Assembly: GCA_964016885.1 (NCBI GenBank)
Contig: OZ024740.1
Span: 427,056,001 to 427,120,000 of the forward strand
From: Eledone cirrhosa
Lineage: Eukaryota
DNA length: 64,000 nucleotides
Direction: 5' to 3'
The notes beneath the pieces are model-generated. The model searched no databases. It was not told where the DNA came from and worked only from the letters and a program-made list of their open reading frames with translations. Shown piece by piece: positions 2,530 through 57,946 of the stretch (its first letter is position 1; each line of letters starts with the position of its first letter). The translations under genes were made by a program, and so were the position numbers.

Positions 2530-2682
2530 TATATATATATATCTATATATATATATATATACACACACACACACACACACACATATATAGCACATATATA
2601 TATATATAGACAGATATATATATATATATATATATATATATACGATATTAACAAATGGAAACTATATTTATAAAACCCTATT

Positions 2683-2747
2683 TATTTCATTATACATATT
2701 TCAAGGACACCAAGTTAAATTATGGTGTGCTTTCATCAGATAAAATA
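2683..2747 (-). ncRNA. Hammerhead ribozyme motif A1 (minimal type I)
   Basis: Minus strand: tattttat-CTGATGA-aagcacacca..tggtgtcctt-GAAA-tatgta-TA-atgaaata. Stems I and II pair. Confidence 0.75.
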
Positions 2748-2902
2748 TAATATAGAGCAGTTTTATAAATAAATATTGACATACCCTTAAAGAATGCAAC
2801 CATTACTGTTGGAAGCTCCGGGATAGTCCGGGAGCTTCCAACAGTAATGGTTGCATTCTTTAAGGGTATGTCAATATTTATTTATAAAACTGCTCTATAT
2901 TA

Positions 2903-2967
2903 TATTTTATCTGATGAAAGCACACTATAATTTAACTTGGTGTCCTTGAAATATGTATAATGAAATA
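2903..2967 (+). ncRNA. Hammerhead ribozyme motif A2
   Basis: tattttat-CTGATGA-aagcacacta..tggtgtcctt-GAAA-tatgta-TA-atgaaata. Confidence 0.75.
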
Positions 2968-3615
2968 AATATGGTTTTATAAATATAGTTTCCATTTGTT
3001 AATATCGTATTTTTACTCCAATTATTTGTTGAGTGCTTTATATCAGTTATAAAAATATTTGCTTGTTATATCCCAACAATCTAAATAGAACTTTTACATA
3101 TATATATATATATATATATATATATATATATATAGTAATAATAATGAATGTGAAGACTAAAATCTGAAGAGGGCTTGATAAGAATAATGTAAATATCAAA
3201 TATATAAAACCATAGAGCAAATGCTTAAACTTTAATCTGTTATTTTAAAAAGTATAAATAAATACGTAGCGATCTCTAGGGTAAAAAAATAGAATTAATT
3301 AGAGTTACTTCCCGTAGGCATTATAAATAGACGAGACTTGTGTTTCTTACTCTCTTATTCGCTGCCGGCATCGTTCTGACGAGCAGCTCTCTATACTCTG
3401 GCGACTACTTCGGAACTGAATACTATATGTACAGAGCATATCACCTCTATCTTGCATGCCCGGATTACTTCATCTTTATTTCTCAAGTGGTTGGATACCA
3501 GCGGTATCTTCCGGAGAAGATTAAACCAATAAACCAATTCACAAAACTGGTGACACCGACGTGATATTTCCTCATGGACACATGTTTTTGTCAGAGATGA
3601 CACATATATATATAT

Positions 3616-3840
3616 AAGGAAAGATATATTTAATTTGCTGGTAATTCAACAAATTTATTTATAACAGATTCGAAGCACTCGACAAGTTTCCTGGAGTATA
3701 AAATCAATGATATTAATAAATGGAAACTATATTTATAAAACCATATTTATTTTATTATATATATTTCAAGGGTACCAAAAATCTTTGGTACGCCCTCATC
3801 AGATAAAATACAAAATTTGTTTTATAAATAGTGACATACC
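3616..3840 (-). mobile_element. Family A pLTR fragment with long 3' tail
   Basis: Homologous to 56384-56612. Abuts (TA)n at about 3615. Confidence 0.8.
3748..3810 (-). ncRNA. Hammerhead ribozyme motif A3
   Basis: Minus strand: tattttat-CTGATGA-gggcgtaccaaa..tttggtaccctt-GAAA-tatata-TA-ataaaata. Perfect 8-bp stem I. Confidence 0.8.
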
Positions 3841-4495
3841 CGAGAAACCAGACCTTATCAGTTCAGGTTCCAAACGGAACATGGCTGTAGACATGACACT
3901 TTTCAGAGCTCAGTGGTTAATGGGGGGGGGGGGATTTTCTTCAAATTGAATATCTGGTTTGGATGCTTGCAATAATGTGTATTCCACTCTAAAAACCCAA
4001 TGGTTATGTGGTGGTATTAAACCGACTGAGGTATTATGCCTGCCACCCAAGTAGGTGAAAGAACGGTTGAACTTAGAATGCAATGAGCTGAAACAACTAC
4101 CGTGATGTATCTCATTCAAGGCTCTATCAATTCTTCCAATCTATCTCTCTGTACTGACCCATTATTTTCTCAATTCCATTAGGATGAAAAATAAAGTTTG
4201 TCCTCCGCGAGATTTTCACTCGGAGAACAGAGAGTTGGAATAAATACGGCAAAGAATTTTATCCCAAACGATCCAACCTTATGGAAACATGAGGCAGGAA
4301 ATATATCCAAATACGGGTGGGAGGCGTCAGTAATATTCATAGAAATACCTGGAATTTGGTTAGATATTTTCTCATTAGTAATCGGAAAGATATATGTGAT
4401 GTGAAAAAACATTTAAATATAATACAATGAAGCCTTCTAAGACGAAAAACTAATGATCATGCATTTGGATATGTAAAACAAATATGGTTTCTTAT

Positions 4496-4645
4496 ATAGG
4501 CACAAGGTCATCGATTTTGGAGGAGGCGAAAGTAGATTTAATCGCCCCCAGTGCGTGACTGGTACTTTATTTTATCAACCCCGTAAGGATGAAAGGCAAA
4601 GTTAACCTTGGCGAGATTTGAACTCAGATAATAAAGGGCCATAAA
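4496..4645 (-). mobile_element. tRNA-derived SINE family 1 fragment
   Basis: ggcacaagg..ggtactttattttatcaaccccgtaaggatgaaaggcaaagttaacc..gatttgaactcag, shared with more than 10 copies in the window. Confidence 0.8.
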
Positions 4646-54308: not shown

Positions 54309-56102
54309 ATATAAATTAAAAATGTAATATATAACTCATCTTATTAAACCTATCGATAAATCATTAGATTCCTTAATACGACTGCCAAAAACTCTCTTAA
54401 ATGAAGAAAAACTTTTTTCCTTAAAACTTTTTTCCTTATAAAAAATTGTTTTCCTTAAAAATTTTTTTCTTAAAAATTTTGTCATTAAAAGTTTTCCTTG
54501 AAAATTCTTTTAGATAAACATACTGAAAGTTAAAAAGAAAATGGGTATAAAAAATTAAGATAAACATACTGAAAGTTAAAAAAAAAAAAGGTTTATTGTT
54601 AATTCCTCTGATGGATATAAAAAATTATAAAAAATTATAATTCATATTTTATACTGTGTTTTTTCTATATATTTTTCTATATATTTTTAAAATTATATTG
54701 CTTAAAAATTACATATTTTTATAATTATATTGGTTAAAAATTACATTGCTTAAAAATATAATTCCTTCTAAAATTATATAATTATATCTTTTTTAAAAAT
54801 TGTAATTCCTTTTAAAATTATAATCCTTTTTAAATTATAACTCATATTTTATTTTATATTATGTATTTTCTATTTATATATATATATATGTATATGTGTA
54901 TATGTATGTGTGCATATGTATATATATATATATATATATATATATATATATATATATATATATATATATATATATATATATATGTATGTATGTATATGTG
55001 CGTATGTATGCATATATGTATGTCTGTGTATATATATATATATCGAAATGTATAATTTGAATACATTCTACGAATGAACTCATATAAAAGGTATATTACG
55101 GTTTATGCTTTAGATATATTCTTATGAAAAACTTTCAACATTAAGACGTTATAGTAAACAAACTTATATTTTAACAGTCACAACTGTATAACAGGTGGAT
55201 TTATAAAATATATAAAATTCATAAAATTATAACTTACTATAAAATAATATAAGGTTCTCTTATAATCTTAACTTTTTTTATCATCTTAACTTTTATAGCA
55301 TATAATCCTTAGAGGTATCTAAATTACAAATATATCAATAAATTTTCCATCACGCTGTATTGCTATTACTAAGAAGAGATTTTTCTTCGCTAAAATCTCT
55401 GAAAATTCCTATATTTTAAACATATATTTTGCTATTTCTTATAAGTTTTATTGTTAATTGAAAAATTTTACATTTAATTGTTGGTTGACAATTAATAATA
55501 AATTTATGTAAGGTTAAGTAATAATAACATATATATATATATATATATATATATATATATATATATATATATATATATATATATATATATGTGTGTGTGT
55601 GTGTGCATATATATATTTTTTTTTAATTATATATTCTTTTAAGAATATATAGATCTCAATTTTAAATTTTTAATTTTTAATTTATAGATCTCAATAATTT
55701 AATCAAATTTAAACATTAGATAAAACTCTCCGGTTATTACTATTTATTTATTTATTTATTTATTTACTTCGCCTAATTCATCCAACATATATTTATTTTT
55801 TCGCTTCATCATCTCATAAAATTACGTTAATACAACACTCTCTCACTTAGGGTGTTCTCTCTTTCTCTTTCTATTCATTGTTTTTCTTTCGACTCTCTTT
55901 TTCCTTTTCCTATTATTTCTTCCCTATTCCAACGGCTTAATTTCAATGTAGGGGATTTAAACCTTTCCGACACTAATTTACATAATAGACCACTAATAAA
56001 ATTAGTAACCCCACTATCCGGGACTATCCGGGAGCTTCCAGCCGACATGGTTGCATTCTTTAAGGGTATGTCAATATTGGTTTATAAAACTGATCTATAT
56101 TA

Positions 56103-56167
56103 TATTTTATCTGATGAAAGTGCGCCATAATTTGCTTTGGTGCCCTTCAAATATGTATAATGAAATA
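56103..56167 (+). ncRNA. Hammerhead motif A8 (catalytic G12 mutated: CAAA)
   Basis: tattttat-CTGATGA-aagtgcgcca..tggtgccctt-CAAA-tatgta-TA-atgaaata. Confidence 0.65.
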
Positions 56168-56523
56168 AATATGGTTTTATAAATATAGTTTCCATTAGTT
56201 AATATATATATATATATATATATATATATATATATATATATATATATATATATATATATATATATATGGAAGACGTAAAATAAGAAAATTTTAAAAATTA
56301 AAAATTAACTTACTAAAATTTTCACTCGTAAATATACTAATTCTCTCTCTCTCTCTCTATATATATATATATATATATATATATAAGCAAAAGGGATATT
56401 CAATTTGTTAGTAATTCAAGAAATATAAATGTTTATAACTGATTCAGAGCACACGACAGGTTTTCTGGACTATAATATTCAATGATATTAAATAAATGGA
56501 AACTATATTTATAAAACCATATT

Positions 56524-56585
56524 TATTCTATTATATATATTTCAAGGGCACCAAAAACTTTGGTACGCTTTCATCAGATAAAATA
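56524..56585 (-). ncRNA. Hammerhead ribozyme motif A9
   Basis: Minus strand: tattttat-CTGATGA-aagcgtaccaaa..tttggtgccctt-GAAA-tatata-TA-atagaata. Confidence 0.8.
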
Positions 56586-57750
56586 CAAAGTTTGTTTTAT
56601 AAATGTTCACATAACCAAGAAAAGATACCTTAATGGTTCAAGTTTTTCTTGGATAGTGAAGGGAAAAGAGAAGAAAAGTCAGATATTTCAAATTATTAAG
56701 ATGAGTATGCAAATGAAGTTGAGGTATAGGGCTGAAAAAACGTTATTTTAGACGCTATGCATAATTTAAATAATTAGGATACATGTATGTATGAGTAGGA
56801 AGAAGAAGAAAAGAAAGAAGAGCTTGTATTTACGTTAATTTAAAAGGAATTAACTTTTTGCGGGAATGGTGGAATATGATTCCAGAATTTTGATCTTCAA
56901 ACTTTCACACATCTTTCGACTAAAATAATATATAATTGAAATTAATCTCACACAAAATAATATATAATTTCTCTATATATTTTCTGAGTAAATCATTTAT
57001 CAAATTTAACGGTTAAACACAAGATTGGAGTTATCTTTCCCTTTTCAATCGTGCAAACATAAACATTATATTATAATATAATATGTATGATAAACTATAT
57101 AACTTCGATAAATTAACAATATTCTGAAAACATTTTCAATGTTGGAACAAAATATTCGAATCTACAAATTGTTCTCCTCTTACAACTTTAACTACCTATT
57201 TTTTTATGTAAAATGCAAAATCAACTTCCTTCGTAACTCATATTAGAAATGTAAACAACTAATAATTGTAAATTATTTCTATTTCTATAATACTTATACA
57301 TGCACAATTATTAATCTATATAGATATTTATATACTCACAACCTGTTGTAATATAATAAGATAAAATCAACTTACAACCATAATTCGTCATATAATCTAA
57401 TTGATTATATATAAAATATTATAACTCATAATATAGCTAAATAAATATAAATTCTGGAATCATATTCCACCATTCCCGCAAAAAGTTAATTCCTTTTAAA
57501 TTAACGTAAATACAAGCTCTTTCTTTTTTTTCTTCTTCCTACTCATACATAGATGTGTCCTAATTATTTAAATTCTGGATAGCGTCTAAAATAACGTTTT
57601 TTCAACCCTATACCTCAACCTCATTTGCATACTCATCTTAATAATTTGAAATATCTGACTTTTCTTCTCTTTTCCTTCACTATCCAAGAAAAACTTGAAT
57701 CATTAAGGTATCTTTTCTTGGTTATGTCAAAATTTATAAAACAAACTTTG

Positions 57751-57811
57751 TATTTTATCTGATGAAAGCGTACCAAAGTTTTGGTACCCTTGAAATATAT
57801 ATAATAGAATA
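57751..57811 (+). ncRNA. Hammerhead ribozyme motif A10
   Basis: tattttat-CTGATGA-aagcgtaccaa..ttggtaccctt-GAAA-tatata-TA-atagaata. Confidence 0.8.
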
Positions 57812-57946
57812 AATATGGTTTTATAAATTTATATATATAGTTTCCATTTATTTAATATCATAGTGTATATATATATATATATATATATATATATATATAT
57901 ATATATATATATATATATATATATATATATATATATATATATATAT

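Follow-up and report, generated by a model that had tools for sequence, protein, structure and literature searches.

In twin priming of the L1 retrotransposon both strands of the target prime reverse transcription, and the insertion consists of two inverted cDNAs within a target duplication, with an end-joined inner junction. Penelope-like elements (PLEs) also leave inverted copies; we describe here how the ends of such copies are paired in the genome of Eledone cirrhosa, in a stretch of 64,000 nucleotides (assembly GCA_964016885.1, contig OZ024740.1, positions 427,056,001 to 427,120,000, forward strand; hereafter the window) and genome-wide. In PLEs that carry an endonuclease (EN+ PLEs) the 3' tail is optionally present on one of the two inverted pseudo-long terminal repeats (pLTRs), and self-priming has been proposed (PMC3846280); elsewhere the tail is drawn as often at one end only and endonuclease resolution is credited (PMC8557442), with the origin of tandem and inverted PLE structures named as an open question (PMC8557442, section 15). 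Opposite-strand hammerhead pairs 100-700 bp apart had been noted earlier (PMC4209133).

The PLE protein of the green anole, from the element Poseidon, cuts and extends both target strands in vitro, has two start sites and is predicted to be a dimer (PMC11167929). Its targets are AT-rich and its template contains an uncleaved hammerhead; the later integration steps are left unvalidated, and the available text ties the two start sites neither to the two strands of one insertion nor to inverted pairs (PMC11167929). The accessible parts of a retrozyme preprint (10.64898/2026.07.22.740005) and of PMC13282606 and PMC8969392 add nothing further on pairing, and no published count or twin-priming model for PLEs was found in the literature searched, which lay apart from older subscription papers and supplementary figures. 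The insertion layout, an inverted copy with a one-ended tail, and the two in vitro start sites are thus already published. What is new here is the strictness of the end rule across two clades, and genomic evidence for two primings per insertion.

Arms of four repeat families, A to D, are joined head-to-head in this genome, and within a pair one arm almost always stops at a fixed short end while the other runs on into a tail. Positions are given relative to each family's short end (0), with the tail from +1 to between +42 and +157. We sampled eight unselected 100-kb blocks and loci found with tail-free core queries for A3, B, D and C, scoring 40 candidates of 841, 390, 2031 and 1390 respectively and keeping 30 loci each; one extra A query contained the tail, so one long end was guaranteed there. 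Strict pairs, in which the 5' ends of the two arms lie at most 60 nt apart, numbered 110 genome-wide: 98 long/short (L/S), 4 short/short (S/S), 2 long/long (L/L) and 6 with a partial end. These last stand outside the main count, as do 16 relaxed pairs (11 L/S, 2 S/S, 3 partial) and one genuine L/S event (L134; sampled loci carry L numbers) lost to de-duplication. L/S combinations made up 98/104 classifiable pairs (binomial p=1.6e-22), where independent choice of ends predicts about half, because long and short ends are about equally frequent. The catalogue of end pairs that the initial annotation of the window had called for is therefore non-random, and the L/S pattern is real and genome-wide.

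The rule recurs in every family (A 49/50, B 24/26, C 9/10, D 16/18) and in the unselected blocks alone (12 L/S and 1 L/L; 12/13, p=0.003). Among 32 young A3 loci there were 25 pairs, all L/S, with 5 unpaired and 2 interrupted. A separate A2 set of 28 loci, collected later, gave 19/19 L/S pairs and one locus left unclassified; of the other loci, 4 were true solos bordered by TA on their 5' side, and 4 had no partner within 8 kb. Pooling both sets, 117/123 pairs are L/S. Nine long B loci comprised 2 L/S pairs, 1 near-short/long pair, 5 partnerless arms and 1 tail-to-tail neighbour pair. In this last case (L296, G000:C1:15384000-15392000, 3929-4551) two slightly trimmed B long arms meet tail-to-tail over a TA tract, and are probably two insertions at one site. 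A distant A-like head-to-head pair in block C7_40M (98415-99046) has an identical extension on both arms, possibly a long/long case or a family with another short end. Pairing itself is common, not obligatory: 36/71 arms in unselected DNA are paired, while the 129 copies of a control short interspersed element (SINE) include 3 inverted pairs lying side by side. As an insertion rule it is strict for pairs, without the universal pairing that had been claimed; the window itself holds three unpaired ends.

The window, AT- and microsatellite-rich DNA from a 3.0-Gb assembly, contains seven L/S pairs, one S/S pair (C) and the three unpaired ends when mapped to natural reference copies:

2644..2823, minus strand: short arm of family A (subfamily A2), 5' end near -184
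2825..3097, plus strand: A2 long arm with a 91-nt tail; hammerhead core CTGATGA at 2911
3618..3869, minus strand: unpaired A long arm; 11-nt sense-arm stub from about 3870
18015..18439, minus strand: family B short arm
18440..18930, plus strand: family B long arm with a 59-nt tail
20750..20995, minus strand: unpaired family D long arm with a 102-nt tail
29770..29918, minus strand: family D short arm
29915..29939, plus strand: family D long tip, covering only +78 to +102 of the tail
34041..34630, minus strand: B3 short arm; inner end approximate (alignment to 34304, body goes on)
34635..34678, plus strand: B3 long tip, -2 to +41
34749..36905, minus strand: A3 long arm, +90 to -1488, split by a nested B pair
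35872..36383: nested family B pair, long arm 35872-36208 (minus), short arm 36230-36383 (plus)
36903..37573, plus strand: A3 short arm, -686 to 0; identity with the A3 long arm 99.3%
37801..37845, minus strand: A4 long tip, +52 to +91
37841..37967, plus strand: A4 short arm
52244..52564: family C pair with two short ends, against the rule
52580..56205, plus strand: 5'-truncated A2 element with a reverse transcriptase (RT) and GIY-YIG-type open reading frame (ORF), open to 54308
56387..57440, minus strand: A1 long arm with a 97-nt tail; inner end approximate
57449..57862, plus strand: A1 short arm

All seven A, B and D examples of the initial annotation are head-to-head with one arm at the short end and one tailed, and the 25-45 bp tips it reported for some long arms occur three times (37801-37845, 34635-34678, 29915-29939). 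Long arms do carry an extension, with tails of 42-157 nt, a wider range than the 60-100 nt proposed. Its family C example, 52045-52575, is indeed a head-to-head pair; at 52244-52564, however, both ends are short and the roughly 157-nt C tail is absent, so the long/short reading fails there, and 52045-52232 had no match in the other sequences compared. Self-comparison of the window gave palindromes at 2640-3010 (97.6%), 18014-18872 (93%), 56471-57875 (93%), 52233-52575 (79%), 34830-35509 against 36903-37582 (99.3%) and 35931-36383 (99.4%). The nested B pair is a single later event, because it lies within a 9-bp target duplication, AAACATTTA at 35863-35871 and 36384-36392, inside the A3 long arm. 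The partner of the unpaired A long arm at 3618..3869 was probably lost later, given its 11-nt sense stub. The A2 element at 52580..56205 has a short end, and no partner was found there.

By the motifs of their predicted proteins, families A, B and D are tied to PLE coding sequence, A and D being of Hydra type and B of Neptune/Nematis type. Family A has a single ORF with a YRDD RT motif followed by a YVG nuclease motif of GIY-YIG type, together with RWR (A3) or RWK (homologs), DKT, a CxCX5C linker, CxxC and CxH; its C-terminal nuclease has no recognisable CCHH, and its targets are (TA)n. The A ORFs themselves had no Pfam match and a PDB sequence search gave no name either, but a homolog, P0017, gave weak RVT_1 and GIY-YIG matches, and named homologs of the family A protein came from cephalopods only. 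The window ORF at 52580-54308 is 78% identical to the A3 ORF. Family B shows RVT_1 (E=3e-4), a YIGET motif, a CX4CxxC linker, two Cys within the GIY-YIG core and two His downstream (CCHH), and is assigned to Neptune/Nematis because of CX4CxxC and CCHH. Family D retains a nuclease fragment only, with the CxCX5C linker in common with A, and no ORF was found in family C.

The hammerhead core CUGANGA, with a variant core in C, lies in A, B and D on the outward-reading strand only and agrees with the minimal hammerhead that EN+ PLEs carry in the pLTR; the ribozyme is predicted from this core motif, and its stems in A-D were judged by eye. If the hammerhead marks the sense strand, the outer ends of the arms would be 3' ends, as had been proposed, and the ORF of the full-length copy L250 has the same polarity. 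Rfam listed no hammerhead among 150 of 169 matches, what came up being microsatellite-driven miRNA noise. L250 is a complete unit of 3747 bp with, in order, an inverted short arm, a pLTR with tail (-911 to +90), a frameshifted RT-nuclease ORF and a second pLTR with tail. The pLTR runs on into the 5' untranslated region, and this stretch is the tail; L250 has the partial-tandem pLTR of EN+ PLEs, with a 3' tail continuing into the body. The region from -184 to +110 gave a folding z of -0.13, and a homodimer prediction for the A3 ORF (first 440 residues, without alignment) scored 0.00, giving no answer.

Either arm of a pair can be the longer. Of the 98 L/S pairs, 44 have the short arm extending further 5' and 15 the long arm, and in 39 the two end within 20 nt of each other; the long arm lies wholly within the tail in 14. 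Among young copies of about 99% identity the short arm is the longer in L231 (-1959 against -60), L234 (-3014 against -224), L246 and L283, and a near-full-length body sits on the long arm in L250 and L284 and on the short arm in L234 and L283. The existence of the young pairs -3014/-224 and -1405/+13 is firm. The direction of the bias is suggestive only, given p=0.12 among arms above 25 nt (see below) and 5' positions in C that are censored because the C reference beyond about -176 is a SINE; that upstream part was accordingly rejected as C body. Arms overlap by up to about 1.9 kb (L244), well past the limit of about 670 bp first given, and only 14/98 pairs have no overlap, so the barely overlapping arms typical of L1 are not the pattern here.

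The 5' ends cluster upstream of the hammerhead, at -184 to -176 in A3, about -168 in A4, about -268 in B and -145 to -160 in D; the A2 hot spot is ACTATCCGGGAG, near -184. In L251, L252 and L256 a motif lies about 20-25 nt upstream of CCACT at this hot spot; we take the motif to be TATA-like and CCACT to be initiator-like. Arms that stop at the hot spot seldom have a partner running past it: A3 has 1 such pair where 7.6 would be expected (p=6e-4), and the A2 set collected later has none where the expectation is 3.0 (p=0.019). In A3 both arms stop there in 10 pairs against 5.2 expected, in a window picked after seeing the data. The 24 A3 junctions comprise 4 with 2-6 nt of microhomology, 4 blunt, 12 with gaps of 1-15 nt, some enlarged by nearby variants, and 4 unreliable; several inserts are copies of adjacent sequence, and near-perfect palindromic junctions occur. 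Junction microhomology, put forward as part of the rule, thus reaches at least 2 nt at only 4/24 A3 junctions, and the 'ccggga' cited at 2820-2833 has another basis: it reflects the A2 hot spot, where each of the two arms ends, with about 1 nt in common between them. Separately, target duplications accompany a young, SINE-like repeat some 190 nt long (the family at window 21886-22078, window 49900-50324, L297, L298, L299), a few copies of which carry a head-to-head inverted copy from the 5' end; fold-back-like joins are not confined to PLEs.

Partner arms share their source. Non-majority alleles are common to partner arms at 23-92%, compared with 1-11% between insertions (A4 46% and 11%, A3 78% and 6%, B 56% and 10%, C 23% and 8%, D 50% and 5%; the A2 figure comes from two pairs only). 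In five long A3 pairs the two arms belong to the same sub-lineage; over the sub-lineage sites, with 6 junction-edge sites set aside, 8 agree and 3 disagree, as against 158/1383 agreeing between insertions. Together with the coupled 5' limits, allele sharing points to one template molecule or one source locus, as far as sequence comparison can tell. At the window C pair the arms differ at 21/140 sites and each is among the other's worst matches. One B pair (G000:C5 50,093,034-50,096,026, block C5_50M) has arms identical over 793 sites with 49 non-majority alleles in common, and represents either a young divergent subfamily or gene conversion.

That ends mostly abut (TA)n, as first noticed, holds genome-wide: (TA)3 lies within 14 nt of 173/196 ends. 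Around four pairs in ordinary sequence we read target duplications of 9, 12, 12 and 13 bp by hand, so that in these the two inverted copies lie inside one target duplication, as in L1. An automated count found duplications at 6/98, no more than in shuffles (mean 3.7, max 8), which we attribute to the (TA)n nature of most flanks; two loci on its list (L013 and L194) showed none on hand reading. A3 ends adjoin TA-like template, ATAAATATA after the short end and ATGTAT after the long end (L250 9180-9200 and equivalents), so that base pairing with the (TA)n target may assist priming.

We propose, with about even confidence, that both target strands are nicked and that each nick primes RT at its own fixed site on what is probably one RNA. 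The pairing rule, the target duplications, the tail-only tips and the common source of partner arms are what we observe, and two primings in one event are favoured because either arm can be the longer, some arms are tail only, target duplications occur and source alleles are shared; priming of both strands at two defined RNA sites, as the initial annotation had supposed, is supported by the near-obligate L/S rule as well, with the anole protein as in vitro precedent (PMC11167929). A dimeric protein would grip a single RNA by its tail, an RT sitting at either end of that tail, and the two GIY-YIG domains of the dimer would place nicks some 9-13 nt apart in a target that is AT-rich or (TA)n. The short-site RT would lead and the long-site RT would copy the tail, either stopping early, leaving a tip, or following and displacing the first cDNA. 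Such displacement would be needed because no RNase H clears the RNA: none was seen in the family A ORF, and to our knowledge PLEs generally lack this domain. Both RTs would stop at the RNA 5' end, the hot spot upstream of the hammerhead, or earlier; the two cDNA ends would then be joined by template jump or host end-joining, with blunt joints or short insertions, and a solo arm would remain where only one priming survived or one arm was lost later. R2, a non-LTR retrotransposon RT without RNase H, can displace an annealed strand (PMC4117753), and re-reading by strand displacement in a PLE would have its precedent there. The claim that overlapping arms need two templates does not follow, given the R2 precedent and the missing RNase H domain, and a tandem read-through RNA would in any case contain the end region twice, as the structure of L250 implies.

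Several points weigh against this reading. The six exceptions (4 S/S, 2 L/L) break the rule and about half of the arms are unpaired. The bias toward further-reaching short arms shrinks to 26 against 15 (p=0.12) when only arms above 25 nt are counted; the A3 surplus of pairs in which both arms stop at the hot spot was not repeated in A2 (4 against 3.7, p=0.57; symmetric 5 against 3.2, p=0.13); and a pile-up of long arms at the short site, the signature of a collision, was unconvincing when the pair lists were checked by eye. Allele sharing is weak in long B pairs, where the relatedness test is mostly uninformative, and gene conversion, or two RNAs transcribed from one locus, could also produce it. 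Deletion does remodel these palindromes, as stretches missing from within some long arms show (L260, L276). In vitro, start sites on top and bottom strands were no different (PMC11167929).

The same two primings could take place on two separate RNAs, each subunit of the dimer bringing its own and an asymmetric complex setting the long and short starts. Overlaps of up to 1.9 kb would then need no strand displacement, and longer arms on either side and tips are explained as well; L1 occasionally joins inverted RT products of two transcripts (PMC11702581), and the window C pair, although short/short, has arms of different sources. The strict asymmetry would require an extra cause, however, and arms of mixed sub-lineage and pairs of a hot-spot arm with a far-reaching one are expected yet scarce, for which reasons we consider two RNAs unlikely. 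One RNA accounts for the L/S asymmetry without extra assumption and is favoured over two freely chosen ones because L/L, S/S and mixed sources are scarce; that one RNA read twice fits the asymmetry better than two is a judgement we hold at roughly even odds of being right. Alternatively, a single priming at the long site could be followed by fold-back, the cDNA end copying itself until the copy stops or is cut by the endonuclease at the short site; deletions around the centre of the palindrome would afterwards make the arms unequal. Published proposals come close to this: self-priming (PMC3846280), and resolution of an intermediate by the endonuclease (PMC8557442). L/S pairing, arms of one source and symmetric junctions follow directly from fold-back, and near-perfect palindromic junctions, the deletions in L260 and L276 and the 5' fold-back-like copies of a SINE in the same genome all accord with it. 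Yet under fold-back the short arm should never exceed the long one, an order that symmetric later deletion cannot invert, and the short arm reaches further in 44/98 pairs against 15/98 for the long, with 14 tail-only tips and young copies such as L231, L234, L246 and L283 among them; fold-back is viable only with frequent later deletion, because short arms are so often the longer. Snap-back also needs at least 2 nt of self-complementarity, which 4/24 junctions offer, and there are true solo short ends with TA on both sides (L265, L275, L277). We regard fold-back as rather improbable, if still in contention.

Independent insertions into one (TA)n tract, or assembly artefacts, are very improbable. 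Microsatellite targets and nesting are common, and a few of the S/S or L/L pairs may have arisen so, but independent insertion predicts about 50% L/S with TA between the arms, and the arms are joined directly. Partner arms share alleles and target duplications and end at family-fixed sites, the arms of long young pairs differ by 0.6-0.9% and those of old pairs by more, and some pairs carry later insertions in one arm only. The small differences, fixed ends, one-sided insertions and duplications are strong, if indirect, evidence against an artefact.

We suggest, with a little less than even confidence, that programmed twin priming is the normal PLE route: one dimer and one RNA with two hard-wired sites, the RNA being read twice by displacement. 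If so, a single reaction, common to at least two PLE clades, would give rise to the tail, the inverted pLTR and the 5' hot spot alike. The near-obligate L/S rule makes a constraint out of what had been a qualitative remark. It connects the published pair of start sites with the two strands of the target in a single event, and is testable straight away in the anole system already established. Many short palindromes of this genome are likewise explained by the rule; annotation could mistake them for miniature inverted-repeat transposable elements or hairpin RNAs.

The window also holds palindromes outside families A-D at 2448-2533, 19806-20215 and 25187-25272, these three centred on TA-rich tracts, and at 40377-40832. 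Minisatellites lie at 6038-7089, 10490-17408, 38746-39298, 50585-51398 and 58666-59879, with units of 30, 30, 25, 55 and 57 bp, the 6.9-kb array at 10490-17408 yielding long spurious ORFs. Decayed non-LTR retrotransposon ORF sets with RVT_1 and zf-RVT matches occur at 26549-29271 (plus strand) and 60922-62626 (minus strand).

Compared with published EN+ PLEs (PMC3846280, PMC8557442), the elements described here share the head-to-head inverted 5'-truncated copy, the one-ended tail and the hammerheads, as well as microsatellite targets and palindromic junctions, with target duplications of 8-10 bp occasional in the published cases. They differ in that the rule is counted here (117/123 pairs), in tail length, 42-157 nt against 30-40 nt, and in that two primings, in place of the published models, are favoured by the tail-only tips and by short arms that outreach the long ones. 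Poseidon is like them in having two internal RT start sites that bound the tail and in the cutting and extension of both strands, and unlike them in belonging to another clade and in start sites 30-40 nt apart (PMC11167929). Family A resembles the Hydra clade (PMC8557442, section 11) in its motifs, hammerhead and (TA)n targets, and D in its linker; at 3.75 kb, with a long AT-rich 3' region, the A3 unit exceeds the generally <3 kb of that clade, a soft limit; its placement in the clade is by motif. L1 twin priming accounts for about 20% of L1 insertions, with a variable second site and a median overlap of 12 bp (PMC12016303, PMC11702581). The tip cases here look exactly the same as its products; unlike in L1, both sites are fixed, about half of the arms are paired and overlap extends to 1.9 kb.

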